DNA of 64,000 bases, taken from contig OZ237750.1 of assembly GCA_965178125.1 (NCBI GenBank), forward strand, positions 434,001 through 498,000, read 5' to 3'. The position numbers were made by a program, and so were the translations under genes. The notes beneath the pieces are model-generated. The model worked only from the letters and a program-made list of their open reading frames with translations, searched no databases and was not told where the DNA came from. Of this stretch, positions 1 through 63,723 are shown piece after piece (within the stretch, counting starts at the first letter, position 1; the number at the start of each line of letters is the position of its first letter). The stretch comes from Bilabrum cf. latius (lineage: Eukaryota).

Positions 1-880
1 GCCACGTGAGAGGCCGGGGACGAGCCCCCGCGATGTGTCTCAGCAGCTGGTCGGAGCTCTCGGCGTCAACGAGCTTGCAGTCCGGTCCGATCTCAGTGCT
101 GAACAGCCGCCCCGCCCACTTGCGTGCCTCCCCCTTGCGCTTACCCGCTGCCGACAGGCCCTGCACCGCGCCGATGGGCGAGGGCAGGCCCGCTGCCTTG
201 ATGGCCGTGAGGCAGTCGTACGCGTGTTCCCCGAGGGCTTCATCGGGCCCGCGGCTGAGGTCCACGGCCATGACGAGTGCGTCGCAGACTCGCACAGTGG
301 CAAGGCATGCTTCCACGGTCAAGGTGGGGACCAGGGTGAACGTGAATCGCTGCTTGAGCTTTACGTAGGAAGCAGTCACGAACTTGCTTTGGCTGACGGA
401 TCCGTTGCTGAGCGTGGCCTGAACATCCGCCGAGCTGGCGAGAGAATCGATCAGGGCGCCCAGCCCGGTGCCACCGTGCGACAGAGAGATGAATCCGACA
501 ACTTTAGGCGTTCCATGACCACCACCTACGCCGAGACGCCGCTTTACCCTCAAGTTTCTCTGTTTCTCCAGCCGCTTTTGGGCTAGCTAATTGGTTCTAG
601 CTTGCCGGCTCGACTACGAGTTGGTTCTGCGCAGAAAGCTAGAGCCAATGTTTCAGATACAATAGCGTGAGATCCCATGCATGCACAAGAAGTGTTATGG
701 ATGATTTGCGAAAGCTCACTTGGCCATCGCAGCATACTTTGCACCAACGATACTCCTACCGGAACTCTCCACCCTGCCTCCGCTCTTCCGGTCCAAGGCG
801 CGCTTTGATGCATGGCCTCCCCCTTTATGTGCCTTGTTCCTCTATTTCTTTCGTCCCGAGCGGTGGTGGTGACCTGACAT
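1..880 (-). CDS. TSR1: Pre-rRNA-processing protein TSR1, 5' part (runs off window start); exons 880-720 and 626-<1
   Basis: Absent from the ORF track. With TAG=Gln it reads MSGHHHRSGRKKQRNKAHKGGGHASKRAL...RQARTNQLAQKRLEKQRNLRVKRRLG...KQRFTF...CLTAIKAAGLP, matching the TSR1 N-terminus. Intron 627-719 (GTGAG..CGCAG). In-frame TAG at 842-844, 614-616 and 587-589. Confidence 0.88.
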
Positions 881-999
881 ACGGTTAGCGCAGAATGTGA
901 GCGAGTTGCACTACAGAGGAGAACAGTAGTGCACGCTGCAGTGCAATGAAATTCATCAACACAATTTCGATGATCCTTCGAGCCCCACTGCCAGGGTGC
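881..999. promoter_or_regulatory. Putative bidirectional promoter between TSR1 and MOCS2A
   Basis: Only ~119 bp separates two divergent start codons. Inferred from geometry only. Confidence 0.45.
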
Positions 1000-1275
1000 A
1001 TGGCAGAAGTACCGGTTGCATTTGACGTTACTATACTGCTGTTTGCATCTGCTCGAGAGGCGTGCGGATCGAGCTCTCTCGAGGTATCGCTTCCAGGCCC
1101 GACATCCATCGCGGAAGTTCGCGAAGCCCTGAAGTCTATTGAAGAGCTGGGAGGAATACTGAAGGGGCAATCAGCTTTATTTGCTCTTAACGAGGAATAC
1201 GTCTTAGACGAGACTTCGGCAGTGGTAAGAAAGGGGGACAGCCTTGCATTGATTCCGCCGGTATCCGGGGGCTGA
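1000..1275 (+). CDS. MOCS2A: Molybdopterin synthase sulfur-carrier subunit (MoaD/ThiS family), 91 aa
   Basis: ILLFASAREACG...ALNEEYV...GDSLALIPPVSGG with the diagnostic C-terminal Gly-Gly, then TGA. In-frame upstream ATGs at 946 and 970 are alternative starts. Confidence 0.95.
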   Translation: MAEVPVAFDVTILLFASAREACGSSSLEVSLPGPTSIAEVREALKSIEELGGILKGQSALFALNEEYVLDETSAVVRKGDSLALIPPVSGG

Positions 1276-1313
1276 GAGTCCTTGAGACCGCTTGAACGCG
1301 ATATCTTCGAAGA

Positions 1314-2162
1314 ATGGAAGGAACAAGTGATAGCAAGGATACCACAGAGCCAGTTACCAGCTCTAGCAAGTGCCCCATCACGGTGCGGCTTGGCCCAAGC
1401 AGCGCGGGCATCCCGGAGCCATCGGCAGCTGAATTAAAGCACGACAACATTTGGGTTAGGATTTCAGGCGACAAGATAGCCCCCGAAGAATTGATCAAAT
1501 TTTGCACAAGACCAAAAGCCGGCGGCATCGGCGTATTCCTGGGGACCACTCGCGATTCGTTCAAGGGCAAGAAAGTGGTCCGGCTAGAATACGAAGGCTT
1601 CTCCAAGATGGCCGCCGCCACGGGCGTCCGGCTGTGCCAGCAGGCGATGGATACTTTTAAACTATCCGCCACAGGCGTCTTTCATCGGCTCGGCAGCGTG
1701 CCTGTGACGGAGAGCAGCGTCGTGGTTGTGGCAAGCTCCGTGCATAGGCGTGAGGCGATGCAGGCGGCTGGGTGGCTCATTGACGAGGTGAAGGCGAGGC
1801 TGCCTGTGTGGAAGCTAGAGTGGTACTAGGGTGATGAAAGGGCCTGGAAAGAGAACTGCGAGTGCGCGTTCGAGGCCATGAAGCGGAGGGCCAGCGAGCG
1901 TGAGGCGGCAGGGGCAGGGGCAGGGACAGGGGCAGGGGCAGGGGCAGGGGCAGGGGCAGGGGCAGGGGCAGGGGCAGGGGCAGGGGCAGGGGCAGGTGCT
2001 CCCAGCACCTGTGCGAGTGGTGCCTCTGAGGAATGCGGGCATGACCACGATCACCCACACCGTGGAGGGGGGGCTGAATCTAAAGGCGGGTTACCAGGGG
2101 TGTCACTCTCCGGGTCATCACCATCCCATGCAATTGACAGAACCATGGTACCAGTGGGGTGA
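1314..2162 (+). CDS. MOCS2B: Molybdopterin synthase catalytic subunit (MoaE family), 282 aa with low-complexity tail
   Basis: GGIGVFLGTTRDSFKGKKVVRLEYE, HRLGSVPVTESSVVVVASSVHRREA, LPVWKLEWY[TAG 1827-1829]GDERAWKENCEC. The conserved WKEN.EC end lies after the TAG. Ends at TGA. Confidence 0.93.
1908..1996 (+). repeat. (GGGGCA)n hexanucleotide tandem repeat encoding poly(Gly-Ala) in the MOCS2B tail
   Basis: About 15 near-perfect copies, directly visible. Confidence 0.95.
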
Positions 2163-2395
2163 ACCTGGTGGCTAGATCCATGGTATTACCATGGGCGTGC
2201 ATTTTGACTCATTTTTCGAGCCATGGTTTAGATATCTGCCGTGTGACAGAATGACACTTCTACCCTACATTTTGCATCAATATAGCGTCGGTCTGTCATT
2301 TTTCATTTTTGGCCACCTCGGCGAGTGCACTGCACGCTCGTGGACGGATCCTCACTGATGGCATCATCACTGCAGACCAGACCGCGGTGCCGACA

Positions 2396-3927
2396 ATGAA
2401 AAGTCTCATATCTATGATTGCACTTACCGCGGGACTTTCCTTTGCAAATTCTGTGGACCCTATTGGTTTTGCTCGAGTCGTGGTTGACACGCGCAGCAAT
2501 TCCAATTGGCTTGCTATCAACGAGACCATTTTCTTAACGTAGGGCATCAACCATGTCAACGACGGCGGCCTTGATGAGTGAGATGAAGTTTTTGTACAAT
2601 CAATCAGCGGCGAGTATGGACTGTGGCATGGTGCTCAGATTTGTGTATCCTTTGGCGATCCGAGCCCTGTCATCGTTCTTCTCGCAGTGGAGTGGGTGGC
2701 CGCGAGTCGTCTCAGTGCCAAGCGAGGACTGGAAATCCAAATTGTGGCGACTCTCTAAATTTTTGCGGCGCTCTCAATGTGTCAGTGTATCACGCATCGC
2801 TGATGGGAACCTACGGCAACTCTTCCTCGCTGTGGGCATCGACTGCAGCCTCTCGCTTGAACCAGTGGGGCTTCAACACGTTGGGCGGCTGGAGCTCAGA
2901 CGAAGCATGCACTGTTGCCGGGAGAGAGCGAGGACTCTTGTGTGCTAAGCTGCTGGACATCGGCACTACGTGGCTCAACCATGATGGATTCGACAACGAC
3001 ATGTACTCGCCCGCGTGGCCCGCCCAGGCCAAGGCAGTCGCACAGAAAGTCGTTGCCCCCCGCAGCAACGACCCAATGCTTCTGGGCTGGCAGCTGGACA
3101 ATGAGCCCAAGTGGGGGACCCTGGCTCTCACTCCGTACCTCCAGCGGCCGGCAGGATCCGAAGGGCAGCAAGCAGCTGTGGCTTTCCTTAGATCTAAATA
3201 CGGCACCATTCAGGCCCTTGACAAGGCGTGGAATGTGCAAGCGTCCTCCTTCGATGACGTTGTCAACCACCTGAACGACCCTGGGATCGACAAGGCTGCC
3301 TTCGGTGCCGACAGTGACGCGTTCCTTGAGCAGACCGCTGGCGTGTATTTCAACGTGTCGTGCTCTGCCATCCGCGCCCACGACACCAACCACATGATCC
3401 TTGGTGTTCGCAATGCGTAGCTCCCCGTGCCTGTTATCAACGCGATGCGGGGGTTCGTCGATTTGGTGGACTAGCACGGATACGGAAACCTGCCGCCCTT
3501 CAACCTTGAGCAGATCCACAACATCACGGGTCTCCCAGTCATGGTGGGCGAGTTCTCTTTCACGGCAATCGATTCCAACCTGCCGAACACAAAGGGTGCG
3601 CGAGAGTACATTCCGTATTTGACCCAGAGGCAGAGGGCGACTGCATTCACGGCCTACGTGGAGCCTCTTATGTCCCTTCCGTTTGCCGTGGGATACCACT
3701 GGTGGCAGTACAACGATGAGCCTTACTTGGGCAGGTGGCCCGATGGAGAGGATTCTAACTATGGGGTGGTAAGCCAGTCGGACGAGCCGTACACTGCACT
3801 GGTCAACGAAATGACGCAGACGAACGCCCGGGTGCCTGGTCTACACGCGGCGGGTAAGCCTGTGCCGACCTGGTCCGACGTGCAGTCCGGTGTCGTCAAG
3901 ATTCTCCCACTGCAATACAGGTCCTGA
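2396..3927 (+). CDS. Secreted clan GH-A glycoside hydrolase, GH50/beta-agarase-like, ~473 aa; exons 2396-2577 and 2688-3927
   Basis: Signal-peptide-like MKSLISMIALTAGLSFA. Motifs GINHV, RLNQWGFNTLGGWS, DPMLLGWQLDNE, DTNHMILG, LPVMVGEFSF, VGYHWWQYNDEP, GRWPDGEDSNYGVV. Intron 2578-2687. In-frame TAG at 2540, 3418 and 3472. Ends at TGA. Confidence 0.8.
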
Positions 3928-4203: not shown

Positions 4204-7200
4204 TCACTGCCGGCAACCCGAAGTGTCGTCGTCATCACCGTCCTCGATCGCGGAAAGCAGCTGCTGCTCCAGCTCGCTCGCCTCGGCACGCGTCATGCCC
4301 GCGGCTTGCGCCATCGCGGAGGCTTCTTGCGATCCGCCGCCCAATGCTCGCAGCTGCCGCTGCAGGTCTGCGTAGGCCGCCGGGTCAGCATCTCCGTCCT
4401 CCTATTGCAGCTGATCGAGGATGCCAGCCACGTGCTAGTGATCGGCGTCTGCCGCCACTGCATCTCGACGCCTCTCCACGCTCGAGGCCGCGCCAGGCCT
4501 GCGGATCCCGAACTCGTCTTCCACTTCCCTATCCTGGTCCCACGTACGGTCGGTCCGGCGTCCGCGCGGGCCTCGAAGTCCAGTCTTGCGCCTCCCTCCC
4601 GTCGTGTTGCCAGTCCCTTGGACAGACGCGATTGCCTGACCCGCCGCTCGCTCGGCCTTGCCGACCACTCCATCGAGATGCTCCGTGGACGCGCCGAACA
4701 CGTGCTTCCTGCTGCTTCTGCTCCCGCGAGCGCCCGATGGTCCGGCGTCTGCCCGGGCGCCTCGGCTGCGGGACAGCTTCGTCCTTCCGCGCCCCGCGAA
4801 CCGAGAGGACTACAACTACGCCTTTGGCCTTGCCCTCTTCTTGCCTGCGTGGGTCTGATTGTTGCCATCGCCCTCGTCGTCACCGATGGCATCGTGAAGC
4901 TCGCTAAGAGCCCGCATGCCCCGCCGAGATAGCACCCGGCGTCCCTTCATGATGCCCAGTTGGGCTGGCGTCTGCGAAGCAAACCACTCGGCGTCATCTA
5001 GCACGTTTCCTTGAGTCCGACCCGTGACTTCCCGAAGGACCTCGATGGGCCCATTGAGCTTGCCGAGCACTCCAGTTAAGTGCTTCTGCGTTTCCTGGAC
5101 TGCAGCCGCCTCCCGTGGCAGCGAGCTAGTGTCCTGTGCCGCCTCTAGAGAGTCGCGCATTGCAGCCACGACCGCGCCTGGCGACCCCGCGTCCGGGCCG
5201 AGGGCATCGGCCTCTTCCTCCTGGCTTTGCTTGACGGCCATGGTGAGCATCTCGATGGCGGCGGGATCGCCCCTTCTGAAGGCCTCAAAGTCGACCCCAA
5301 TGCTATCGAGCATCTGCTTCGTGTTGTTCGCAAGCATCTCGCGCTCTGCTTCCAGCTGCTTCTGGTCGCTAGCACTCATGAAGTCTCCGGGAAGCTTCCC
5401 TTCTCTCAGCTTTGCCTCTGCCTCCTTGGCAAGTCGGTCGATATCGAGGCTGGCTGCGCTGCCTGCATCTTCGTCCTGGCGCTAGATCGACTCGAACTGT
5501 TCCATGAGTCCGCCCATCATTTGCAAAGGGTCGTCCTGCGCACTGCTGCTGTTGAGAGACTTGCTGGAATCAAGGCCATCCGGGGCGGCCTTGCGGACTT
5601 CGTCCTCACGATCAAACTGCAGAGGCAACGTCCTTCCCTTCGTCTTGGGTGCAGACTGACCGAGCTTGGCAGGATTTCTGACGGGTCTCCCATGGCCGTC
5701 CGTGTCTCCAAACGTATCAATCTCCCTCTTGAGCTGCCTGATGCGCACCCGAAACTCCTCAAGGACTGTGCGGGCACGAGCACCCTCCTCGCTGTCGCTC
5801 GGCTGCTCCGACACTGCACCCTCGAACTCGGCGCAGGTCTCCATCAGGGCGGTGCGCATGGCTGACCTAGTCACCAGCTTCCGCTGCACTGTCTCCCGCG
5901 ATAGGTCAACTTGCGCGGGCTCCACAACCGACACTTGCGACAGCCTGTCCAGCATGACTCGAACCAGCTTGCGGTTGAGCGCCTCTTGGATGGCATCTTC
6001 GGTTGGGCTCAGATTGGGCGTTTGCGCCAAGAAAACCCTGGCTTTAACCGGCGTCAGCCGTTCCTACCTTGGCTTGTTCGCGGTGCGCCCTTCCTCGTCG
6101 AGGTCTGGGGTCTCTCTACTGCCGTCCTTGCTGCCGTCCTCTGTATCCTTGAAGACAACGCTGGCCGCCTGATCTAGCGTCAGACCAGCAGCCTGCAGTC
6201 GATCCATTTCCTCCTTGGCAGCATGCACAGCACTCATGCTGGCACCCATCTTCTCTTCAATCTACACCCGTGCACGCGCGAGGGCTTGCTCTCTTGCCCA
6301 CTCAGCCGGCCGCCCCCCTTCCTCCTCCTGCCCGTCCACTGCAATCTCTTCATCCTCTAGCTGTTTGGCGCGGCGCATCGCAGCGACGGCTTCGGCAGGC
6401 ACCCCGCCAGCCAGCAGCGCAGCTTCTGGTGAGCCAGTCTCCTCCACTGACTGTTCAAATTGCTCCACCTGCTCGATGATGGTCCTCTCGAAGGAATTCA
6501 CGGGGGAGTTTATGGCAACGATGCGTGCTAGATCGACTGGGATGCCCAGGTCTTCCACGAGGTACTTGGCACGGCTCGCGAGCGGCTCAGGCAGCTCTGC
6601 GCCTCTTCGCCTGAGAGCTCTTGTGCTGTGCTCGCTGACCACCGCTTCTGCAACCGCGCTCTCGATGGGGCCCTGCACGCCGCTCTTGGCCCTAGCCGCC
6701 AGGACGTCGTCCGCCGTCTCGCCCTCCTTGGCCCCAAGCAGCTTGGCGAGAGATTCGCGCCTCTGCTTGGAGCTAGAGACGGCGAGGTGGGCTGGCAGCT
6801 GCGGCATAGGCGGCAAGGCAGACTCGGGCACGGTCTTGCCTTCATTCTTCTTAGAGTACTGCTGCGCGATCTCCTGGCATTTGGACTCCCACGCCTTGAG
6901 CTGCTCCGAGTATTTCGTCACTGCCTGCAGCTGTTTGGCAGATACGATGCCTTCGAGGCTGGACTACGGGGTGCTACCGCCGGTCTCGCTCGCCAGCGCA
7001 GCGGTGCGGGCCTTGAGATCCTCCGTGCCGGGAGCCCCCGACTCGATCAGGAAATCGGCAAAGGCCAAAAGGGCGTCCTCGCTCTCCGTGAGCTGATCCA
7101 TCGCAGCTGCGACGCCGAGCCTCTGGTCGCCTAGCTGACTGAGCAACTCGTCACGGAGCACATCAGCGCTGGGAATGGCCAGCTGAGCCAATGCCAGCTT

Positions 7201-10200
7201 GTCTTTACGCAACTACTCAGCAGGAGATATCTGCGGCTCGGTAGCATCGGGAGTAGTGCCTTGGCTGCGGTAATTCGGCTTGATCCGCCCACGAGCTGGC
7301 CTGCCCTCCATTTCGCGACTGAGCTCCTGCACCCGACGGATGACATCGTCCGTCGATTTGGCACCATGCGTCAATACGCTGGGAAGGGTGTCCTTCATGA
7401 CAGACAGGACTTTAACGTCATCGGCAGTCGAAGATTTACCACCTTGCGGGGCGCCCTTGGCAGTGCCACTGTCCACATTCGGTGCTGCTGCCTCAACGTC
7501 ATGTGCGGCACCACCAGTGACCGTCTCCTTGCGCTCGGGCTGGGTCTATTCGGCTCGCCGTTGGGCTGCTCTACGGCGCGCCCGCTCTCTAGCGGCTCGC
7601 ACGGCGTTCATGCGTGCCGTGGAGAGCCGCGCAAGTCGCAGGCGGCTCGCCGGAGTCACCACTTCTCTGGAAGGCCCAACGAACTTGCTGCCTTTCGCCA
7701 TCGCGATCTTCCGGAGGATGTCTGCTGTAGCTTGGATGGATTGCGATTGAGGCATTGGCTGCGGCGCAGTCTTACGCTTCCGACCTTTTGCGAGGTGCAT
7801 TGAAGGCTCTGAAGCTCTCCAACGCTGAATCTTCTGCAGAGACTTCGTATTCCGGCTCCTCGCGTCATACGACGGCACTGTCCTGTTCGGTACCTTGGTC
7901 CACATTGATTCCATCGATCGGCGGGAGAGCTCGATGGCGCGTAGAGTCTGCTCCATCTTGCGACCCTCCTCTGCGTGCTTGCCGAGGAGCGTGTGGAATG
8001 ACTCGGCGCTTCGCCCGTCCTGGCGGCGCGATCCATAGGCTGCTTCGTCGCGGGCCTGGGCCTAGCCGATGGCCCGAAGGAGGCGGTGCCTCACGGTGGA
8101 GTTCTTGATAGTGCCTGGTTTGATGGACGACAGTTGCTGCTTGGACAAGGACCGCAAGATGCGCTCTGTCATGAGGCCACGCTGTGCGAGCGCAGTGAGC
8201 TAGTCGCCGTCTAGCCTTCTTGGTCTGAGTCGCTTGAATAGGGAAGGTTTCAGCGGACGGACCTTGCGCTGCCTGCCCGACCTGCTGGCTGATTTCCCCC
8301 TCTAAACTGCTGTATTCGCCGATGATGATTGCTTCTGCTTCTCGCTTGCATCATCCTATGAGTTCTGCTCCGACTTTGACAGAGACTGTACAAATTGCTT
8401 TAGCTGCTCGTCTGCTTCCACCGCGAACTCCAGCAACGCCTCGAGTCTCGCCTCCGAGTGCGGGCCAAGTGGTAACCGATCCAGCGCCTGTAGCACCCCA
8501 CGGTACGGCGCAATCAGCCCCGGCCGGCGACTTAGTAGCTTCAGCAAGGCATGCATCGTGTCATCCTCTTCAGGTGGCATGCTAAGGATGGAGCGGATGT
8601 CCGTGCGAGAGCGCGTCTGAGAGATTGCGGGCGCGAGCTTGAACGGCACACCGTCAGCGGTGGAGCCAAGCAAGGCAGAATCCAATCCTCGATTCCGCCC
8701 GATTTCGGCGTCCCGAATCATGGCTTGGAAGTGAGCTGCCTGCTCGGGAGTCAGCTCTTCGAGGGCAGCGGTGTCGATCTTCGCCGCAGCCTCTTTGAGT
8801 TTCTCCTCGTGCGACTTTGCCTCTGCGGCTTCAGCACTCTCTGCGACCTTCGGTTCCTGCGGAGATCCACCCATTAGCTCTTCAGGAGTGCCTACCTGCT
8901 CCTCAGCAATCTCAGTCCTTTCGGCGGTTGGTCGCCCACCATCATCTGCGGCTTGGCTTTCGCTAGAACCTGCGCCCGCAAGCCGACCCTGATGCAGCAC
9001 GCTCTGGGCTCTCTCGTCTGCGGTCATGACGAGCTCGGATGGCAACCGAAGCTTCAAGATTTTTTCTTGCTCCTCTGGAGACAGGACCGTCTCGGCGGCT
9101 GTACTTCCACGCAAATTTGAGGGGCTGCTTCCAGTCCACTCGAAAAAGGCGATTCGCCTGACGTCCCAGCCCGCCGTGCGGAGGAGCCTCTCCTTCCAGC
9201 GCGAAGATGCGTTCAGATCTGTGGAAACGCCGTTCGACGACACATCAGATGTAGCCGCGTCTTCTGCGAGCATATTGTGCAAAAGGGCGAGTTGCAATAC
9301 AAATAGAATTGCAGCGCATTCGCTATTCGCACAGTGCTGCGAGTGGTTGCCACTCAATTGCTCGACTGTCCTAATATTCACGGACGACGAGCACTCAACA
9401 AAAGCGGCTGCGCCGCCAACCATGCCCGTAGGCTGCAGCAACCACCGAGGCGGAAGCGCGCCAGGCAGGCACCGGGTGGCAGCACTTATCTTGCAGCTCT
9501 GAAGAACCAAAATCCGCACCGGACACGGTCACTCGTTGCCGAGCTCCCGCGGCAGAAATCAGCAGATACAGAGTGCTTTCAATACAAATTAGCAGGGCAC
9601 TACACTACAAAACGAGGCAACAAACGAGCCAATAGACTATCACTGCACAATAAGAGCTATCCCTCACGCGGCAAGAAGTGATGCGGTCCGTCGACCTCGA
9701 GGCATACCATGCTGCTCGGCCACGCAGCATCCAAGTACAGCTGTTCATCTGTTAGGTACTCCCTATAAAACGGCTAGAAAGCTGCGGTTACGAGGATTGA
9801 ACAAGCAAAAAGGCATACCAGTGCATAGCAGGAACGAGCACTAAACAGAAGGGCAGGTGCACGCGCGCTACAGTCTTACACATCTTGCTTCGCAGAGAGA
9901 AGAGCACGTCACTCTGCAGCTGCGACTATTGCGCAGATGGCGTCGATTCTCCTGTTAAAGCATTCTGCACCGCAAATCGCAAACGCGGGGGCAGCTACAG
10001 CTGCTTCGGCCCTGACAATGTCCCAATCTTATCCAAGGTAAGCTGAATCTGCCTCAGCTGGACGATGGTCCTAGTACCGAGAACTTTCAGTACCTCTGTC
10101 TGGAGGCCAGCCAACGACTGCGTGCTTCCAGAGGCGTACTCACTAGAAATGTACCTCGAAGCCTGGAACACAGCGGCCAGTCCCTGCTGCAGCGGCGCTG

Positions 10201-13200: not shown

Positions 13201-13216
13201 TATTTAAGAAGTTCAT
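4204..13216 (-). CDS. Very large (~2,836 aa) RAP-domain protein, probably mitochondrial RNA-binding; exons 13216-9880, 9781-9668 and 9263-4204
   Basis: Track ORFs 11291-12460, 10748-11287 and 9995-10630 share one frame. ORFs 8356, 7546, 7213, 6964, 6262, 6064, 5482, 4816 and 4435 share another. All end in TAG. RAP motifs: SQLQSDVLFSL, YLDAAWPSSMVCLEVDGPHHF, RWKERLLRTAGWDVRRIAFFEW. The N-terminus is Arg/Ser-rich and presequence-like. About 29 in-frame TAG; ends at TGA 4204-4206. The 404-nt second intron may hide an extra exon. Confidence 0.72.
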
Positions 13217-48501: not shown

Positions 48502-48898
48502 CGTACCCTGCGGGAAACAGTCGCATACGTAATATTCTGATACTCATCGGGGCATCGGCATGTTGCGGTGGGTCTGCTCGAGGGAGCCTTGCGCTGTGGG
48601 TTGTGGCTAGTTGCACCACGAATTGGTGAAGCCTCGGACTTACGTGCAAATGCAAGCCAGCAAAGAAAACAGTGCACTGAGAAAAGTGAGTTTGCCTCGG
48701 CCAGTGTCTCGCTCGCTGTTCAGAATAGTCTGGTGCCGATGATAATGCGACTACCAGCGGTGAACCTTCGCAGCCGCGGTCGCTTCAGCTGTGAGCTCAT
48801 TAGTGGTCGCACAGCAACGTCAGCGAAGCCCCCAAGAATTGTGTGCACCGGCACGCTGGCAGAACTCATCTATCATCATCAGTCAAAGGAGGCGTCTT

Positions 48899-50544: not shown

Positions 50545-51053
50545 GGTCCTGCTGGAACGCAGTCACACCAGCTTCAGGGGTCAGTTGTGAGACGAGTCTC
50601 GGAACCAACGAGCGTTCTAGCAAAGCTCGTGTAGGCGGCGGCTTCTCTGGGCCAGACTTCCCCAAAAGAGAAGATATGGGTAATAACAATGCGTATTTAA
50701 CTTTAGTAGGCGCAAATCGAGGAGCGCAGAACCGTAGTAACCAAACAAACTGGGTGCACTATTTTGCCGATCACTTCGTGGCGCCGCGCATTGATATCAT
50801 TTGGTTCCGCTTGTCAAGCATTAGCACCGATTAGGGCTCTGTCCGCAGTCAGAAGCGATCAATTCGGCATACAGATTGTTGCGGGGATCCCCCATGATAC
50901 AGTCATACACAAATACGGGACCATGGAAGCAGGAAGCCCCAGAACCACTCCCCCCATGCCGAAATACAAAAGTGCGCCGCGGAGACGCGGCCTTCCGAAG
51001 ACGCCGCGTTCCGCCATCTCGCCATCCTATCATTCCATCGTCTCCAAGCTCAC

Positions 51054-52565: not shown

Positions 52566-52738
52566 ACTTTCAGTTGAATAAAAAGCAGAAATGCAGTTTT
52601 TCCCGCATCCGCGCCATCCAGGCAGCCAAATCTGATTTTGTTTGCAATTAACACCTTACCTCCGCGTTTCGTGGCGAGCTTCCTCTTGCAGATAATAATC
52701 ATTTCAGGTATATATAGGGAACAAACTCACCAGCAATC
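52566..52738. promoter_or_regulatory. Putative bidirectional promoter between MAT and GCAT
   Basis: 173-bp AT-rich gap between divergent ATGs, with a TATATA at ~52709. Confidence 0.45.
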
Positions 52739-54052
52739 ATGCAACTAGCTGCTATTCGAGCCGCTGCTGCGAAGTTTACTTCAAGATTCTCTACGAACCA
52801 CGCGGCATGGAGCCGACTTGCCGTTCAGCGACGGTGGCAATCACAGGAGGCTGCCCAAGAGACTCTGGAAGATCGTATCCACACGGAGATCGAAACCATG
52901 AGGAGCGAAGGCACTTACAAGCAAGAGAGAGTGATTACTTCGCCTCAGAGCGCTTCGATCCGGGTTCAGGGCAGGACGGAGTCTGTGCTGAACTTCTGCG
53001 GCAACCAGTACTTGGGATTGTCGAACCACCCAGAGCTATGCAAGGCCGCGAAGGATGCTATTGATACGCATGGATTCGGTTTGTCCAGCGTGCGGTTCAT
53101 TTGCGGCACGCAGGATCTTCACAAGCAGCTCGAAGCATCTATTGCGAGATTCCACAAGACCGAGGACACGATCCTGTACCCGAGCTGCTTCGATGCCAAC
53201 GCGGGGCTCTTCGAGGCAATCCTGACCAAGGATGATGCCATCATTAGCGACCAGCTGAACCACGCGAGCATCATTGACGGCGTTCGCCTCTGCAAGGCGC
53301 GCAGGAAGCGGTACAACCACCTCGACATGGTCGACCTCGAGAAGGCCCTCTAGGAGACGCAGGACTGCCGCGTGCGACTGATCGCCACGGACGGCGTGTT
53401 CTCCATGGACGGCGACGTGGCCCCTCTCAAGGACATCGTGGGGCTGGCGAGGAAGTACGACGCCCGCGTGTTCATCGACGAGTGCCACGCCACGGGCTTC
53501 TTCGGCCCCACCGGGCGTGGGACGGACGAGTACTTTGGGCTGCAGGGGCAGATCGACATCATCAACTCCACCCTGGGCAAGGCCCTCGGGGGCGCCACGG
53601 GTGGCTACACGACCGGCAAGGCGGAGATGGTGGACCTGCTGAGGAACAAGGCGAGGCCCTACCTGTTCTCCAACACGCTGGCCCCTGCCGTGGCGGGTGC
53701 CAGCATCAAGGTATTCGAGATGCTGGAGGAAGACACCTCCATGGTCCAGACCCTCAGGGAACACACGCACTACTTCCGGGATAGGCTGGACGCCGCCGGG
53801 TTCACCGTGCTGGGTGCCAGGGACCATCCCATCTGCCCTGTGCTTCTGAAAGACGCACGCCTCGCCGGCGAATTCGCGGACCGCATGCTGGAGAAGGGCA
53901 TCTACGTGATCGGGTTCTCCTTCCCGGTGGTGCCCAAGGGCCAGGCCCGCATCCGCACGCAGCTCTCCGCAGCGCACACCAAGGAGCAGCTGGAGCAGTG
54001 CGTGGAGGCCTTCATCGACGTGGGCAAGGACCTGGGCGTCATCGAGGGGTGA
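52739..54052 (+). CDS. GCAT: 2-amino-3-ketobutyrate CoA ligase (glycine C-acetyltransferase), mitochondrial, 437 aa
   Basis: Presequence, [54 protein letters not shown][TAG 53351-53353][40 protein letters not shown]. Confidence 0.96.
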
Positions 54053-54300
54053 GGGCCAGGGAGCAGCTGGAGTAAGGGACCGATTGTCTGGAGCATTGAG
54101 TGACAGGATTTGTGCCGATACTTGTGTTTATTGAAAAAAGAAGAACGGGCACTTTTGATATTGAGTCCTTCAGAGAGAGGGTTCTCAGGGGGGGCTGCCG
54201 ACATGCTGGACTGGCAAGGTTCACCGCACTAGAGTGATTCAAATGAATCGAGGCAGAGGGAGCCCTTCACCACAGGATCAGCCCAGAAATCAACTCAAAC

Positions 54301-55608
54301 TCAAAATGTCTCGAGCACGGCGTACTCTCCGTCCTTCCACAGGAGGTTGACTACGGGCCTGCCCTTGAATCCAGCGGGGCACGTGTAGGACCCCCCTCCC
54401 ACGACCACGGGCTTGCTAACGAGCTCGTCCCAGGAATACACCTGCACAGGGATGCTCCACGCGGCCACGGTTGCAACCACCTCGAGCACCGTGGCCTCCG
54501 CCTTGATGGAATCCACGTACTTTGCCCTATAGTCCGTCAGCCCCAGCTTGCTGTCCCTGACCTTGCAGAACGACTCCAGCTGCTGCCTCTTCTGGTACAG
54601 GCCAACCCCGGTCATAGTCTTGAGGAACACAGACACGCTCATGATTCTGTGCTTGTCCTCCACGAGCCCGAGCAGCTGCTCGAGGGTCATGGTGTCGATG
54701 CTCAGCACGGCCATCTGGAACTCGGCCTGGAAATCCTCGATCACCATCGGTTCGTAGCCGGCCAGCTCCATCAGGGGGGTGCAATTCTCCATGGTTCCAA
54801 GCAGGCGAGTTCTCAGCATGCCGGGGTCTGTGCTCTTTGGAACGCCGGTGGCTGGAATCATGGCTGGTTGCACGGGCGTCCAGTCCTCCGGCGAGAGGTC
54901 AGCTCCGTCGCCGCCCGGCTTCCCAGAGGAACCTCCCGAGGCACCCCCACCAGTGCGAACACCAAAGGCGTACCCACTCGCAGAACGGGCGGCGTATTCC
55001 TTCTCAGTCTCCTCATCGCCCTCGATCGGCTTGCCATTCCAGCTGCCCCAGCCGCGACCTGGCGCTGCAGGCCGCGGTGAGTACTTGAACTGCTGCGCTG
55101 CAGGCTTTTTCTGTGTTTTTCTGCTGCTTTCTTTACTATCGATGGAGGAATCTTCCTTCTTTGAGCTCTGAGAACTAGATGTTACCACATCTGCAGGTGG
55201 GACGCCCATGCAAGCGGTCAGCACTGCAAAGGCCCACGCCCTGTAGAATGTGCTGAGATCCAACTTGTTATTAAAGAATCGAGCATTTTTAAACGCAGCA
55301 CATAAGTCCCGTAGCCCCTCTTTCTCTGCATCGTTCTCGCATGTTGCAGCCAGATCATCCAGCGACACTACTCTGGTACCGTACTCCCGCTGTGCACCGG
55401 ATCCCCCTCCCCCTGTCGCTGCATCACTGCGAATGATAGTGAAATAGGCTAGGATCGCTTGCTGTTGGCAGTATTGCTTGTTCTGAGACAGCTGATAAGG
55501 AGGGTGGCACCCTCACGGGGCATCCTTCATGCTTGCCGCAATGGCTGCCTGAATCATCGCATCCTCAGACTTTGCAGGTGCACCTCCTTTTGGTGCGCTT
55601 GATGCCAT
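54301..55608 (-). CDS. Otubain-like (peptidase C65) pseudo-deubiquitinase with N-terminal UIM, 405 aa; exons 55608-55517 and 55426-54301
   Basis: UIM-like SEDAMIQAAIAASM. LDLSTFYRAWAF corresponds to otubain DGNCFYRAFGF, and PVVNLLWKDGEYAVL to PKVYLLYRPGHYDIL. Intron 55427-55516. Confidence 0.72.
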
Positions 55609-56509
55609 CTTGTAGTGGGTCTGCTGCGGTTTTGTGACGGCAGTCGGGTGGGAAATCGTGCAGCTCCGAGTTACTGCTTGCCCACCGTACAGTGGCAGTG
55701 CCGGTGATGGCGGTGTCCCAGGGGTGTTGCAAGTGGTCGTGGCAGCTTGAAGACCCTAACTATATGACCTCCTTGTTATCTACCAATCGTCTTTGATAAT
55801 ACATGTGGAAAAGTGCTTCAAAGCAGACGGGCTGTGCAAGGCCGTGGCTCGGCTTGGTGTCCAATAGTGCTGCCCCATTGCCGTGAGGCTCTCAAGTCAG
55901 AGGTAGGACTGGGGTGACAAAGAGGGAAAGTAAAGTGTCCTCAGGCGGGCAGGCGGCCGGGAGAGGGTCTTCTATCACATACTGAACAACCACTGGCAGA
56001 GCGCGGTGTGAGATGACTCGATCGGATTGGCTAGATGGGCAGAGCACCAGTGGTGCGACGCCTGGTCGAGGTAGAAATCGCGGGCACCAGCGGCAACGAA
56101 CACCGGTGGCAGCGCAATTGGCCAGTCGTAGTTTGGTCCGAAGTGCAAGTGGCCGCCCTCCGAGCCGTTGGCCTCGCCCAAGCAGTTGGGATGATGGCCA
56201 TTGATGTGCGGTGGATCCAGTTCCAGTGCACCACGAGCGTGCGTGATGATCGACAGCCTGACCATCCCGTGGGTATCCAAACAAAAAGGGCTTTGGAAGG
56301 GATCAAGACATGGGTAACGACAATTATGATGATGAAGATCAAAACCAGAAAGGTGCACATCCGAGTCGGAATACCGGATTTTGCCGAGACCCGCAGATAC
56401 TGCTTCACTAGCATCGCGCCTGCCTTACAAAGGCTACTAGATATACATAGCCACAAATAACAATCCGAGCTTGCACATAATTGTCACCGATTGAGTTGCA
56501 CTTGGAACG

Positions 56510-57736
56510 ATGGAAGCTCTTGATGCGTTGGCCGTATTTGGCAATAGTTTGGCCGAGTACGTTCACTCCCTGTCCACCCTTTACTTGAGCCTGCACATTG
56601 TGGCGGCTGTGCTGGCTGTTTTTTCCCTCTGTGTACTATGGGGTGTGCTGCATTCGCAGTGCTTGCACGGTTATTTTTCGGTTGGCGGGCGCCGCGTCTG
56701 GGCTTACGCTCCTGGGGAGGCCCACTTGCTAGCCCACGAAATGTTCGAGATGCCGACTCGTGTTGACCACGGCATTACAATGCCCAAGAAAGGAGCCGTT
56801 GTGGTTGATGTGGGAGCCAACATCGGGCTGTTCACGAGGTGGGTCCTCGAGAACTACAAGGATGCCACTGTGCACAGCTATGAGCCTATGAAGGACACGT
56901 TCAAGGCGATGGAAGCGAACATGGCAGAGCTGGGCGACCTTGGCAAGCGTGCAAAGCTCCATAACTTCGGGCTTGGAGACGAGGAGACCGAGATCGAGAC
57001 TGAAAAATTCGTCTCACGCTGGACGTGCGGAGCGAGCATGGTGCCGAGCCAGGCCGTGGAGGACGTGCAGGCAGCCGAGGGGACAGACATGGTAGTGGCC
57101 GCCCGCGCCTTAATGCACGATGCTGTGGAATGCCGTTCTTTCTCCTGGTGGGCCTCGTGGCCCGCGTACTGGCTGCTCAAGACGGGCTTCCCGCCCCTCC
57201 AGTACCTCGGTGTTCTCTGGGCGGCAGGGCCCATGCTCATGGAAGGCTTCATCTGCGGGTTCCTGGAGAAGAAAGCGACATTCCAGGTGCGTCGCACACG
57301 CGACGCTTTGAAGGAAGCGGGCGTGACTGGCCGCGTGGACCTCCTGAAGATCGACGTGGAGGGGGCAGAGGAAGCCGTGCTCAAGGGCATGAGCAAGGAT
57401 CAGTGGGACAACACGCAGGCCGTGTGGTGCGAGGTGCATGACTCGGGAGGCACCCGGGCTCGGGTCACCAAGCTCCTGGAGTCCCACGGCTTCGAGGTAT
57501 ACGCGGAGCAGGAGGACTTCCACTGGCTGCAGCTCATGGGACTCTGGGTCCTATACGCGCACAGGCCCTAGGGGTCGGCCTCGAAGAACGGCAGCCATGC
57601 CAATGGGGAACAGAAGGATGCTCGCGACGGCAGTGCCGCAGAAAGCGAGGAGGAGGGGGGAGGAGGAGGAGGAGGAAAAAGCCCAAGGCCACCCGCAGGC
57701 GCTCTGGGTTCGCGTGGCAGAAAGGGACGTTCGTGA
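56510..57736 (+). CDS. FkbM-family (Methyltransf_21) SAM-dependent methyltransferase with N-terminal TM segment, ~408 aa
   Basis: VVVDVGANIGLF, SYEP, LHNFGLG, VDLLKIDVEGAEEAVLKG, CEVHD. TAG 57569-57571 is read through to TGA 57734-57736. Confidence 0.88.
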
Positions 57737-57965
57737 AGGGAATGCCTAGCCTCACGCTGAAGCCATCTGCTCGACGATTTCGATTGTGCGTGTGCCTGTG
57801 GGGGTCGAGCAATTGCGACAGTGTGAGCAGGTCTACTGTCTTCATAAGTTATGTTTGCACTGCAGCCTGAGCGCAGCGCTTTGTTCGGAGGGCTTTGGCC
57901 CACCCGGCATCTGCTGCCTTACGTTCAAGCGGCTTAATAATCTAGCTTGCTCAGTTTGTCGCGAT

Positions 57966-58294
57966 TCAGATGTACTGAACTTGGTGCTCTGCCCCCCACT
58001 TTCTTTGGTCTGGCGCTCGACTCGCACCAACCAGCGGAATGCGACCACCGACGTGACTAGGCCTGCAGTCGCCGCGCACCGGCCAGCGATCTCGCGCAAC
58101 GGAACCGAGCCTCGCCCGAGGTTTGACTGGCCCTGCTCGTTCAAGAGATAGCATCACACCCAGCTGAGTTCGCGCATATTTGCAAAAACCGACGACACTT
58201 CGTTGTCGTTCGCTTCACTTGGGTCCGTGACGGTCGCAGCCCAGCGCGGCGAATGATTTACTCCTGCGATGCTCCCTGGCTTGCCACCAGTCAT
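57966..58294 (-). CDS. Possible small hypothetical protein (~80 aa); exons 58294-58219 and 58132-57966
   Basis: An 86-nt GT..GCAG intron gives an open frame ending at TGA. No recognisable domain, and the donor GTGAAG is atypical. Confidence 0.25.
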
Positions 58295-58458
58295 TGACTC
58301 TGGATAAACCTGTGTGAGACACCACTCTCGAGTATATTACAGCTAGTACAATGCAGCATAGCGTTGCTTCCTTACGGTACCCCACCTGATCCCGGATAGT
58401 TTTGTTGAACACAAACAGTTTAACCGTATCGTCGCAGGATTGGCTGTTGAAATACTCA

Positions 58459-61400
58459 ATGGCAGCAGCAGATTTCGACGCCAAGGCTGGCTAGCAGGGT
58501 CTTTTGCGGCGGACAAGATCGCTTCGAAGCGACGGATTCCGCGAAGGTCGGGCAGGCAAGACACTGCCAGTGCCTGCGCAACTTGCTGCCCGTGCCAGTC
58601 GTGCGTCGCAAGGTGTGCCGACAACCGGGAGGGTTTACGGCGCAGCAGGAGCAGATTCTTCTCCTGTAGATAACAGTATCGATGCTTATGCGAAAGAGGT
58701 GGTTGCATAGCCGTACAGCACCGTGGCCAGGTCAAGAAAGAACGCCAGTCCATCGGATGCCCAGGCGAGCAAGACTTCGGCCCGTGATGAAAGCGATTAT
58801 TCAGATACAAGTCGTGTTGATGTTCGCCGTCGCCGCATTGGATCGGAGCCACCACCCCGAATCCGTAGCGATGGCCATTTTCCTGGCGCTAAGCCACGAT
58901 CCGACGTCTCGAATGTAAGCGAGCACAGCAACTCATCGTCACACCAGACCCCGCGTGCAATCACTCCTTCAAGCGAAATGAGCAGACGACGAGGTAGCTC
59001 TGGGGGCAAGTGGCGCCGGCAGGTGACTGCCCGCCGGTCCCGCCTTGGTCCCCAAGTTGGGTCGGGTACCTCCGGGGGGATTTCCCCTCAGGCGGTGGGG
59101 TCACGTGAGCCATCGTAGAGCGTCAGCAGGGTTGAAGCCACCCTCAGCACCGATGCAGCAAGCAGGCTCACGTCTGCCCAGCCCATGGCAGCCACAAGTA
59201 TCGACTAGGAAGGGCAGGCTGCAGCAAGCCAGGCTATGCATGCGGATGCGGATGCAGCTGGACTGGCATCAACTGGGGCGCAGCACCATTCGTCCCGTGC
59301 AGGCACAGGCAGGGATAGTCCGGGCACTCCCTTGCTGCCACAGCCCGCGGACTCGCCTGGTAGCGAAGAATCAGGGCCAGGTACCTCCCAGTCGAGGCAG
59401 CCTGACGGCTAGAATGGCCCCGGGTTTAATTAGATATTGCGGTCAACTGGCCACGAACACATGGTGTCAGGGTCGGGGCGTCTTGTGGCCGCCCCTGCCG
59501 AACGTCCACCCTCCACCACTAAGCGAACCAGTACAACAGGGAAGTTCTCCCCAATTTCGGGGGCGGCTTCAGGCCAGTACGCAAGCGCGCTACAGGAGGA
59601 TGCTGGCATGCTTAGGGTCTTGGGCGGCACCCCAACCCCGCCCGACTCGCCTGCCCCTGCAATCGCAAGCTTTCAGGGGCGGGCGCAGCACAGAACTGCT
59701 TCCCCCACGCCGTCCCATCTGAGTGGTGCCTCTGTGGAGCACCTGCACGGAAAAGGGACCATCCCCTCTCCCGGTCACGCCTCTATCCCTGACAGGGACA
59801 GGCGCCAGCAGGCAAAGGTGGGCTGGCAGGCACCGTCTCGATTGGGGGGTTACAAGGTTGGCAGGCCGTTAGGAGAAGGTGGCTTTGGAACCGTCTACTA
59901 GGCAACTAGACAGGATGGCATGCAGGTCGCTCTTAAGTTTCTCGCTAGCGGTCGAGGGGCCTTCGATACCACCGAAGATGCCTCCCGCGTGGCTACGGAA
60001 GCTCGCGTGCTCAGCAGCATCCGTCATCCGCATATCACCGAGCTCCTCGAAGTAGTTGTGGCCCAGGTGCACTCGCAGCCCGGTCGACTGAACGGCCGTG
60101 AGCGCGAGTCCCCGGCCAAGCCGCAGGGAAGGGAGTCGGCTGGCCGATCGGTCAGTCCCCGGTCCGAAGCTGCGAGTCCGCGGCTGACCAGTGAGGTCTC
60201 CACGGGAGCCAGCGACAGCGACGCGCGGGCCAGCGGTCCCGCGCAGCGTTGCTCTGTCCTAGTGCTGCAGTATGCGCCTGGGGGCAATCTGAAGCAGGAG
60301 ATCCGCAGGCGATCCGCGAGGAGCAAGGACGCCGTAAAGAGCTACGCGCTTGCCATGATGCAGGAGCTGAGCGGCCACGACCTCGACAAAGAGGGGCACT
60401 TGCAGGACCACCACACATCTGGTCCGAGGCTGACGCTCCCGATGGAGGTACAGAGTGCAGGGGGCAGCTCGGCTGGAGGATCCTCCGCCTCGTCCCATGC
60501 CATGAGCCCGGCGAGAAAAGCCCCGCCGCACTGGCAGGAGCAGCTCAAGCTGGGCCTGTACGGAGCCTACTCGGAATCGGAAGCTGGTCATATCGCTAAT
60601 CAGCTAGCGGCCGCTTTGGCAGTCCTGCATGCGCAGAGTGTCGCCCACCTTGACGTCAAGCCAGACAACGTGCTGCTGACAGCCCCGAGCGTTCGCGGGT
60701 CCCGTCTTGCCGGTGGTTCGATCGGTTCGTCTGGCTCTTTGTCCAGGCGGCCGCACGGAATTCACATCCTTTTGACAGACTTTGGTCTCGCATAGTACTT
60801 CACGTAGGGCCAGAAGGTAGTTATAGACGCCGGGAGCTTGCCATACCTCCCCCCAGAGGTCCTGCGTGGCAAGCCCGCTGTGCCAGCCAGTGTGGACATG
60901 TGGTCCCTCGGGGTCACGCTGTATGCCTGTCTCCTCGGCAAGCTGCCGTTTCGACCGGACTCACACCCGCACCTGTACGACCATCTGAGTCGAGATCCTC
61001 ACGCCGGTCACGACAGCACTGCAAGCGCGGGGCGATACCAAGGAAGAGTCGCTGCTGGTGCGCCAGTGGGCGGCATCAAGCAGCCGCCAAGCGGTCGGGA
61101 CACGCCGACTGGACTTGATGGTCTGTCTCCTCTTCCTGTGGGTAGTCCCAGGCACGGTGTCCGCAGCAAAGGCATCGCAGGAGTCAGGGCGCGGTCGCGG
61201 TCCAACAGCCCAGAATCCATGGCTGGCCACGCCGGATCGCCGTTGCTGAGACAAGCTCTCCGCACGAGGGCCCACACGGATTTGGGGCCGCCCCCAAGCC
61301 CAGAATTGGCCCCGCAGTCTAGACCATCCGCTGCAGGGGCTGCTTCGTCGCAGCCAGGGTCTGCTCGTGGCAGTCCCCGCGCCGGGACACCGAGAAGGAC

Positions 61401-63723
61401 ATGCACACGGAAGGCTTCCTCACCGAGGCGGGACCGGTATGACGCGCGATAGCGCACTGGGAGTGCGGAACGCATCAACATGCTCCTAAAGGACATTGCA
61501 CCCTCCGACAGCGAGGCCTCTTGCTCGTCAATGGATGAGGCAGAGGGCCAGTCGCCTCGGAGGGCGAGGCGCAAGCGGTCCAAGGAGCGCAGGCGACGAG
61601 AACGCAGCCTCGAGTCATCCAATTCTTCTATTGGCTCGTCAGCGCACCCAGACCTGCCTCAAGTCAAACCACGATCTGCGCAGGGGCTTACAAAAGACGC
61701 TATCATCCACGGCGAGCCCGTATTGCCGTCCTTTTTATCCATTGAAGTGAGGGCTTTGCTTCGATCATTACTGAGCAAGGACCCGTCCATGCGACCCAGC
61801 GCCAGCAGCGTCAAGCGACACACACCGTGGCAGATAGGAGGAGATGCGTCCGGTATTGGCGTGAGGCCGCCCTGGCTGTCTTTGTCTCCGCTCTTTGGTG
61901 GGCTTGAGAATCCTACGGATAGGCTATCGTTGGACGCGGGTTCGCTTCATGCCGCCACAGGCGCAATAGCGGTACCACCGCAGCTGGATCTTCCGCAGCC
62001 CAATTTGATCCAGCAAAGGTTCAAGTCGGTGTCGGCTCAATCAAGGGCAGAGCAGACAGAGCCACTGGCTGCGGCAGGATCCACTCATCCCGTGGCATTG
62101 CCGAGCAACGGCCGCGCAACCAACTCTGCCGCCAGCTCACAAGCAGCCGGCACTGCCCGGTCTAGCCCCGGGCAGCTCGGCGTCCTCTCTCCCATCGTGG
62201 GTCAGTAGAGGCTGAGTTCGCCTGACAGCATTCGAAGCGCCAGGAGCGACAGGTCACCGCTGCAACCATCGCAGCGCTCGTTGTCCCCGACAGGACACGC
62301 CGCCGGCCTACCTGGTCTCGCGAGCTTGTCTGGGAGCACTGCCGGTCCAGATGTTGCAGCTGATAGTCATGGCGCGATTCGAGTGGACGAATCAGGGTCT
62401 GCATCACCCACGCTCGCGACTGATGGCGCGCACGCCAGCCCCCAGATTGGCGGGGGTCGAGTGATGGCAGCCCGGTCGCCTGCGCTGTCATCAACGTCCT
62501 CATTCAGGCGAGGGCGCAGAGGACCTGTCGCCGCAATCCGACTGGACAAACCGCGAGCTCTTCCGCGGTTGCAGACAACATCGTTCAATAGAACTCCCAG
62601 GGGTGCCGGTTTAGCCGGCGGGTCCGTCGGTGGGAGCATTGAGGCTGCCAAGAAATCTCCGCAGCACGCATCTTCTCCAAGCCTCATCCGAGCTGCATCG
62701 TTTTCGCTGCCAAGTGCTCCTGCAATCATTGCGAAGACCAAGCCTAAGATGTTTGGCATGTCGTTTGACGCCTCTCAATTCGAACAGTCCGCCCCAGGCA
62801 AGGGCTCGAGGAGCTAGTGGGGCGCCATGCCAGGCAGGCTAGGGTCCATCGGCAGGCAGCGAGAGCCGGACGGTGACATCAAAAAGGAAAAGGCTTCCGA
62901 GCTGCTCGGTGAGGAGACCCCGGATGACAAGGCTCCGATGCCAGGCGTGGTCACGGGAAGGATGTCGGGCATGGGTGGTTCGATGCGTGGCCGGATGATC
63001 GGGGAGGCGGCAGCAAGAGGGCGGCTTGGCATGGGCAGATCAGAAACCGATGCGTTCACGAGAGGCTCTCCAGTGCAGACGACAAGGATTAGGAAAGGCG
63101 GCGCTGTTGGGGTCGGCAGTCCGGGCATCCGATCTGTAATTAGTCTGGCGCGCCAGGAATCAGACGACTCTCTAGGCACTGCGGGGACTCGGAAACAGTC
63201 AGGATTCTCGCCTGCGCAGGGCAGCCCGCTCTCTCCGAACATGGGGAGCAGGGCAAGGCCATCAGCCCGAAGTATGGAAAGCCCGTCAAGTGCGGGGTTG
63301 CTTTCGCCGATTCGCGGAAGTCTTGGCTCACCTGGCATTACAGCCAGAGCGGGAACCAGCCCGGTGTCTGCAGCAGGATCAGGATCCCATGTTGCGCAAA
63401 GCCCAACAACAGGCCGAACGTTCGCCAGCCAATCTCCGCAGAAGCATGGCTATTTCCCTGCCAGAGATAGCAGCACAGCACATAGCCCTGGATCTGGTCA
63501 GCACTTAGCTGCCCTTGGTACTGGAAGCCTCCACCGCCGCAATGGTTCACCTTCATCCGTGAGGAGCGGTTCCACTGGCTCTCCATATGGCACAGAACGG
63601 AGACAACTTCCAGGATATGTTGGTGCGGTTAAAGTACCGCCTGCACTACAGCACGGGCTGAGACGGTTCCCGGGAGGGGCTTGCGCGGGCAGTACGCTGG
63701 CTGCCAGTAGACAAGGCACGTGA
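58459..63723 (+). CDS. Large single-exon CAMK/MARK-like Ser/Thr kinase with long disordered inserts, ~1,754 aa
   Basis: Eight same-frame track ORFs are joined by 12 TAG. GEGGFGTVY[TAG]A, VALK, HPHITELLEV, HLDVKPDNVLL, TDFGLA[TAG]YFT[TAG]G, PYLPPE, VDMWSLGV, LLSKDPSMRPS. Ends with tandem TGA TAA. Confidence 0.85.

Follow-up and report, generated by a model that had tools for sequence, protein, structure and literature searches.

UAG as a probable glutamine codon in a GC-rich, 64,000-base stretch of Bilabrum cf. latius DNA

Gene content of the window

A stretch of DNA from Bilabrum cf. latius (positions 434,001 to 498,000 of contig OZ237750.1, assembly GCA_965178125.1) carries genes whose reading frames contain numerous TAG codons, and the subject of this work is the meaning of UAG in these genes. 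The stretch, called the window below and numbered from its own first base, is 64,000 bases long, contains no N and has a GC content of ~57-65%. Its gene set is eukaryotic and includes TSR1, MoaE, a GH42-like hydrolase, a RAP-domain protein, an enolase-superfamily enzyme and WDR90/POC16, together with a TmcB-TPR/PAS membrane protein, an AGC kinase, S-adenosylmethionine synthetase (MAT), GCAT, an otubain gene, an FkbM methyltransferase and a large protein kinase. The presence of WDR90 points to a flagellate or another centriole-bearing cell, and the window is best explained as nuclear DNA of a GC-rich, intron-poor flagellate.

At the left edge lies the 5' part of TSR1 (2-880, minus strand), read by eye as exon 1 (722-880) and exon 2 (2-625, running past the window edge) with a GT..AG intron between them, and with in-frame TAG codons at 842-844, 614-616 and 587-589; a homologue search with exon 2 gave no matches. 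MoaE, the molybdopterin synthase catalytic subunit (1314-2162, plus strand; Pfam MoaE, E 5.8e-30), has one TAG at 1827-1829 and ends with TGA, and in PDB alignments its homology (W-K-x-N) picks up again in frame past the TAG. The C-terminal tail of MoaE contains a long perfect (GA)n at ~1900-2000, which reads as (PC)n on the opposite strand. Next come a GH42-like glycoside hydrolase (2803-3927, plus strand) with two in-frame TAGs and the RAP-domain protein of 1739 amino acids (aa; 4204-9423, minus strand) with 14, both ending with TGA, and P0002, a protein of 1142 aa (9788-13216, minus strand) that also has 14 in-frame TAGs. WDR90/POC16, a protein of the centriole and flagellum (15330-25685, minus strand), is made up of a main exon (15330-24737) with 10 TAGs and an N-terminal CFA20-domain exon (~25176-25685) with two; the exon joins over 24737-25176 are provisional, and a PDB search with the N-terminal exon returned no matches.

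The repeat protein P0003 (26736-29450, plus strand) has eight in-frame TAGs and ends with TGA. In it the motif S-x-M-R-S-K-x-P-R-F recurs every ~60-100 residues, which we take to resemble the sperm-tail PG-rich (SHIPPO) repeats of flagellar proteins; a comparison of P0003 with Pfam gave no match at E 0.01. The TmcB-TPR/PAS membrane protein P0008 (2095 aa; 29561-35848, minus strand) has nine in-frame TAGs, P0009, a PDZ-like protein (41115-44930, plus strand), has four, and P0010 (45068-47962, plus strand) has two; all three end with TGA. Near the N-terminus of P0009, at 41200-41560, lies a perfect dipeptide repeat, (AP)n, of ~60 units.

The AGC kinase (48899-50544, minus strand) has five TAGs in exon 1 (49861-50544), among them those at 50536-50538 and 50059-50061, an intron at 49751-49860 and a TGA stop at 48899-48901; a second intron, at 48508-48643, lies outside the coding sequence in the 3'-untranslated region (3'UTR). 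MAT (50859-52573, minus strand) is free of TAG, has an intron at 52160-52462, stops at TGA 51054-51056 and has its poly(A) site at ~50859. GCAT, a 2-amino-3-ketobutyrate CoA ligase (52739-54052, plus strand), contains a single in-frame TAG at 53351-53353, beyond which homology continues in the same frame until the gene ends with TGA. The FkbM-type methyltransferase (56510-57736, plus strand; TGA stop) has one TAG, at 57569-57571, a putative sense codon. At position 57709, in or beside a G-run at the 3' end of this gene, all three covering sequencing runs, including the DNA-like run X1, are one base shorter than the window; this may be an assembly indel, which would shift the last codons of FkbM. 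Finally, P0011, the large protein kinase of 1754 aa (58459-63723, plus strand), has 12 in-frame TAGs and a TGA stop, and a spliced intron at 58314-58437 lies upstream of its start codon, outside the coding sequence.

In-frame TAG codons and the length of reading frames

Over the 18 gene models, ~16,940 codons hold 89 in-frame TAGs, no TAA and no TGA. The count was based on 21 exon or gene segments from these 18 genes (17,026 codons), 86 codons of which lie past the stop of the AGC kinase, in its 3'UTR, where the one TAA and four TGAs counted over all segments are found; five of the 89 TAGs fall in the doubtful N-terminal 190 codons of P0003. TAG occurs in 16 of the 18 genes, among conserved and lineage-specific ones alike; the two without it are MAT and the otubain gene. 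The enolase-like open reading frame (ORF) is free of it too. These figures agree with an earlier model-made reading of the bare sequence (the first-pass annotation), which had put the in-frame TAGs at about 90, spread over about 17 genes, and had seen neither frameshifts nor in-frame TGA alongside them. The six TAG sites that it had singled out were all found where it had placed them, in the same strand and peptide context (q marks TAG here and below): LWqHPF at 25653-25655, YAFqSEHK at 50059-50061, KKqRNKAHK at 842-844, TNqLAQ at 587-589 and MGqGGSK at 50536-50538 on the minus strand, and KALqETQ at 53351-53353 on the plus strand. In the two remaining frames of these segments, TAG, TAA and TGA occur 6.7, 3.1 and 17.4 times per 1000 triplets, respectively. 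A load of in-frame TAG of this size, accompanied by neither TGA nor frameshifts, is far beyond chance.

The length of the reading frames depends on the same codon. When stop-to-stop ORFs are read with the standard code, the longest reaches 1121 aa, and seven ORFs of at least 500 aa add up to 5003 aa. With TAG as sense, the longest ORFs measure 3194, 2097, 1777, 1774, 1374 and 1173 aa, and 13 ORFs of at least 500 aa add up to 16,773 aa. Taking TAA as sense leaves the longest ORF at 1121 aa (total for ORFs of at least 500 aa, 5096 aa), and taking TGA as sense raises that total to 10,544 aa with the longest ORF still at 1121 aa and the giant frames absent. Since long ORFs arise with the TAG-sense reading only, TAG is a real sense codon.

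Retention of UAG in transcript-like contigs

Sequencing runs were compared over positions 44001-64000, using the DNA-like run X1 and three others, X5, X6 and X7, which come from two other studies than X1 (four runs, three studies in all). X5, X6 and X7 are assembled contigs, in which rare variants are lost, and they are not on record as RNA, X5 having been classed automatically as 'probably DNA'. Their RNA nature can be deduced from their joints and from a poly(T) end: they show GT..AG joints on the gene strand at 49751-49860, 48508-48643, 52160-52462, 55427-55516 and 58314-58437, and X5 and X7 have a poly(T) loose end at 50859. The depth of these runs also varies hundredfold among genes.

All four runs show zero differing letters against the window over this range. 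Joining the kinase exons at the first of these joints produces an unbroken AGC kinase ORF of 511 codons that ends with TGA. The listed contigs, including one over P0010 (45012-47971), two over GCAT (52729-54158 and 52719-54117) and one over P0011 (58153-63808), none with a differing letter, span all 21 TAGs of P0010, AGC kinase exon 1, GCAT, FkbM and P0011, with no joints at TAGs. UAG is retained in spliced mRNA and is neither edited nor spliced out. The notion that the TAGs are never translated, being assembly errors, RNA editing sites, in-frame introns or signs of pseudogene decay, has these jointless, letter-perfect contigs from three studies against it, and also the absence of TGA, TAA and frameshifts from the same genes and the recurrence of the pattern in a relative at 43-44% identity (see below); its probability is close to nil. 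On the grounds of the contigs, the intact frames and the pattern in that relative, editing, in-frame introns, pseudogenes and assembly error were rejected.

In X5, X6 and X7, contigs are much deeper over MAT than over any other gene, and MAT shares the lack of TAG with the otubain gene and the enolase-like ORF. Such TAG-free genes may reflect avoidance of a rare codon under high expression, although contig depth cannot rank genes. Additionally, the same sequence or parts of it occur in runs X5-X7 and X8-X19, which carry at least 10 other organism labels and also the labels 'protist metagenome' and 'algae metagenome'. Cultures of protists may often harbor this organism, whether as a companion or as a contaminant.

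The residue at conserved positions

All amino-acid tests were run with TAG masked as X. For exon 1 of the AGC kinase, 69 of the 120 homologues listed were aligned, the choice of rows having been fixed before the columns were inspected; the rows dropped comprise 20 among P0012-P0100 (at most 57% identity, mostly long S6K/RSK-type kinases) and 31 after P0100. Column 162, which corresponds to the TAG at 50059-50061 in the YAFQ motif, is Q in 69 of 69 aligned homologues, and likewise in the five of five solved Akt chains shown.

Two further motifs agree with glutamine. The WDR90 motif WXHPF faces WQHSF in the brown alga Cladosiphon, the sole homologue having this N-terminus, and KKXRNKAHK of TSR1 (842-844) faces KQQNKAHK of the human protein with Q at the TAG, in a weak match (E 0.35). 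A search with the 3135-aa WDR90 exon gave two matches among 7998 scored candidates, crowded by low-complexity sequence, and no TAG columns were usable beyond the N-terminal motif.

Relatives in public proteins and in a metagenome contig

A full HMMER search with P0002 found nine proteins, every one a fragment. Four of four fragments, 90-97% identical to P0002, stop just before window codons TAG642, TAG1097, CAG766 and CAG1010, as would be expected if the gene of a close relative, in which TAG swaps with CAG, had been annotated with the standard code. The public protein collection has relatives' genes as pieces cut at TAG (P0134-P0139, P0137, P0142 and P0144), three of which, for example, come from one 11,263-base contig.

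A first metagenome scan, made with P0002 alone, confirmed no locus, and a second, made with alignment A3, recovered contig L001 (11,213 bp, GC 0.555). The longest standard-code ORF of L001 has 322 aa; reading TAG as sense yields ORFs of 1665 and 1208 aa, and reading TAA as sense brings no gain. The 1665-aa ORF is orthologous to the RAP-domain protein and the 1208-aa ORF to P0002, at 43-44% identity. The gene pair is collinear and in the same orientation in both sequences (9788-13216 and 4204-9423 in the window, 254-3880 and 4300-9297 in L001).

Among 2686 aligned columns between L001 and the window, 51 pair a TAG with a residue and one pairs TAG with TAG. The partners of the 51 are Q in 17 cases, followed by R (6), T (5), S (5), A (4), G (3), P (2) and H (2), with N, D, E, I, L, K and M found once each. 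As background, 28% of ordinary Q residues in the same alignments have Q opposite, and for any other residue the share facing Q is at most 8.2%. When the log-likelihood of the TAG partners is computed under residue substitution profiles, Q is best, 16.4 units above K and 27.9 above E. Where local identity is at least 0.6, Q faces the TAG in 11 of 15 columns, and a conserved C-terminal block shows a reciprocal swap (FAVQNAL against FAVqNAL). Pyrrolysine-type recoding was set aside, given that the profile of the TAG columns is that of glutamine.

A single TAG position is shared, against 26 and 25 aligned TAG columns that are not, which implies free turnover of TAG with CAG and CAA. To judge from these alignments, at least one more distant environmental relative uses the same code.

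UAA, UGA and the ends of genes

UAA behaves differently from UAG. The genes of the window contain 140 CAA, 510 CAG and 89 TAG codons in frame and no TAA, whereas a ratio of TAA to TAG equal to that of CAA to CAG would predict ~24 TAAs; the two genes of L001 contain 57 CAA, 70 CAG and 29 TAG codons and again no TAA, against ~23 expected on the same basis. Thus, UAA is not a sense codon in either sequence. The four longest ORFs are likewise unchanged when TAA is also read through. A code in which both UAA and UAG specify glutamine (NCBI table 6), UAA being merely rare in a GC-rich genome, could claim that UAA is scarcely used as a stop either, since TGA ends 15 of 16 genes, but it is at odds with the zero counts of TAA in both sequences and with the lack of growth of the long ORFs, and it must be regarded as highly unlikely. 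This part of the first-pass annotation, which had read UAG as glutamine and left UAA unreassigned, is borne out.

The 16 readable gene ends consist of 15 TGAs and one TAA, at P0002; as each end was placed at the first TGA or TAA, a genuine UAG stop would have been passed over. UAA probably still works as a stop, as suggested by one pair of orthologues, P0002 and its counterpart in L001, in both of which the first in-frame stop is TAA. UAG is needed as a stop in none of the 16 readable genes.

Weighing the assignment to glutamine

The assignment that best accommodates these observations is that UAG is a glutamine sense codon here, that UGA provides nearly all termination and that UAA lies outside the sense set; judged on sequence, we give it a probability of about 0.9. 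UAG is read efficiently enough to supply an invariant glutamine of a catalytic domain and to occur 14 times in one gene.

Several observations weigh against this assignment. Two other TAG columns of the AGC kinase alignment (69 rows) are variable and mostly not glutamine: column 148 has E 26, N 24, D 6, K 6 and Q 2, and column 3, the MGqGG start, has N 49, Q 4 and G 4. The TAG column of GCAT, variable in its family, holds I, K, K, E and E, with Q in none of the five solved homologues shown, and that of MoaE, equally variable, holds E, E, L and E with one homologue unaligned, again with Q in none of the five shown. A relative 94% identical to P0002 has E at TAG1074. UAA ends one of the two genes in L001, the P0002 orthologue, and the C-terminal tails of P0002 and L001 do not align. 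The only TAG of FkbM stands just past the Pfam domain, with low-complexity sequence behind it, and UAG termination is possible there. Neither the window nor L001 yielded a tRNA with ARAGORN or a family with Rfam at gathering thresholds (hence no rRNA in the window), and the genes for eRF1 and glutaminyl-tRNA synthetase lie outside the 64-kb window. Of the positions that the first-pass annotation had taken as diagnostic, the YAFQ site of the AGC kinase has proved to be so, while GCAT and the start of the kinase have not.

The variable columns bear most directly on the proposal that UAG is sense but specifies an amino acid different from glutamine, for example Glu, Lys, Leu or Tyr, as happens in other lineages. 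The E in three of the five MoaE homologues, the K or E in four of the five of GCAT and the E at TAG1074 would fit such a reading. They are opposed by the invariant AGC kinase column, by the 51-column profile likelihood, which places K and E far below Q, by the single E among the 51 partners and by the P0002 fragments, in which the relative's ORF ends on a window CAG in both of the two non-TAG cases; a different amino acid is very improbable.

The gene ends and FkbM bear on a second proposal, in which UAG is ambiguous, sense inside genes and stop at some gene ends. Context-dependent codes of this kind occur in Condylostoma and karyorelicts, and ambiguous-code ciliates have very short 3'UTRs. 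With only 16 readable ends, each set by the first TGA or TAA, UAG stops would pass unnoticed, and the position of the FkbM TAG is what such a code would allow. GCAT, MAT and MoaE, however, reach TGA where their homologues end, homology (P0002) or the repeat motif (P0003) runs on past the last TAG, the single 3'UTR seen, that of MAT, measures ~195 nucleotides, and no gene requires a UAG stop. An ambiguous UAG is improbable, if a little less so than a different amino acid.

Proposed mechanism and comparison with known codes

Under the glutamine assignment, UAG would have been reassigned from stop to glutamine; in alignments it behaves as a synonym of CAG and CAA. By analogy with other lineages, a tRNA-Gln(CUA) that differs from tRNA-Gln(CUG) by one change in the anticodon would pair with UAG and not with UAA, eRF1 would no longer recognize UAG, and glutaminyl-tRNA synthetase would accept the new anticodon. 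The expectation of the tRNA and of the altered eRF1 derives from other UAG reassignments as described in the available parts of PMC5304391 and PMC11687900. In the same parts of these sources, UAG alone is read as glutamine in Iotanema spirale, Protocruzia tuzeti, Hartmannula sinica and Trochilia petrani, as leucine in the rhizarian exLh and a phyllopharyngean clade and as serine in Scotinosphaera, and UAA is the main stop in Iotanema, the rhizarian and the phyllopharyngeans (PMC11687900; PMC5304391).

According to the part of its description available to us, the fornicate Iotanema spirale resembles the present case in that UAG alone has passed to glutamine, UAA is not sense, and a tRNA-Gln(CUA) and an altered eRF1 are expected, the eRF1 change being T32G in the GTS motif (PMC5304391). 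It belongs to an unrelated lineage, however, and its dominant stop is UAA (PMC5304391), whereas TGA ends 15 of 16 genes here, in a genome of ~60% GC. Hartmannula sinica, Trochilia petrani and Protocruzia tuzeti show the same codon change, with UAG widely used as sense; as far as the available text of the source goes, these ciliates prefer UAA as stop (PMC11687900), while the present sequence is a GC-rich 64-kb stretch with spliceosomal introns and with an AGC kinase that groups with Cafeteria and not with ciliates. The lineages in which UAG is leucine or serine share the restriction to UAG, but here L faces TAG in one and S in five of 51 columns, and both fit far worse than Q.

Both UAA and UAG (UAR) specify glutamine (NCBI table 6) in Tetrahymena, Hexamita, Streblomastix, ulvophytes and Amoeboaphelidium, and tRNA-Gln(CUA) is known there. 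The likeness to these codes is a stop turned into glutamine, and the difference is that UAA is sense there, in contrast with zero TAA against ~24 expected here. In phages, recoding under 'code 15' is tied to late genes and suppressor tRNAs. These phages, crAss-like and others, have the same table (TAG as glutamine), but, in the part of the source available, they are phages in bacteria and not a eukaryotic nuclear genome (PMC9523058).

Placement of the organism

The AGC kinase gives the clearest indication of lineage. Among the matches listed, its closest named homologue is that of Cafeteria roenbergensis (77% identity), with environmental and transcriptome rows at 78-81%. A quick maximum-likelihood tree of 70 rows groups the window kinase with Cafeteria roenbergensis and a EukProt row in a clade of 18 rows (SH-aLRT 99), and the groups adjoining this clade include a labyrinthulomycete; the tree was built from one partial gene (exon 1), and the window row fills 45% of its columns. 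Cladosiphon is the sole named match of WDR90. A MAT query of Protein Atlas returned generic MAT clusters only (bacteria, plants, chordates), with no lineage signal. P0002 has no named homologue among its nine HMMER fragments, and thus the organism does not seem close to any annotated genome.

Together, these comparisons make a stramenopile near the bicosoecids the somewhat favored placement. The first-pass annotation had suggested a lineage other than the ciliates and a possible independent origin of the code: the grouping with Cafeteria roenbergensis agrees with the former, and the latter is plausible, both judged from one partial gene.

Novelty and implications

The codon table itself is known, as several descriptions of UAG = Gln without sense UAA have appeared since 2017. 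For a nuclear code change in stramenopiles or bicosoecids, a full-text literature search that covered few subscription journals and no supplements found no report; the data date from 2025, and a description may exist. What appears to be new is the lineage, the GC-rich background with UGA as the near-sole stop and the wider environmental clade having the code. A tentative reading, to which we give slightly less than even odds, goes further: this would be the first stramenopile nuclear code change, an independent UAG = Gln reassignment in a bicosoecid-related clade of GC-rich, heterotrophic flagellates that includes environmental relatives and relies on UGA as near-sole stop, unlike the described UAG-only lineages, in which UAA dominates.

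UAA and UAG nearly always change meaning together. Each lineage that splits UAA from UAG is a test of the constraints that couple them, namely tRNA wobble and eRF1 recognition, and few UAG-only lineages are on record in the available parts of the sources named above (some ciliates and one each from the fornicates, the rhizarians and the green algae). A GC-rich, UGA-reliant lineage would offer a different background, one that is awkward for scenarios in which a stop codon is first made rare by AT pressure. There is also a practical side, in that standard-code annotation of this genome and of its relatives breaks genes at each TAG, and the public protein collection already has such fragments. 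Given that the sequence is present in runs under several organism labels, mis-translated contaminant transcripts are likely in other data sets as well.

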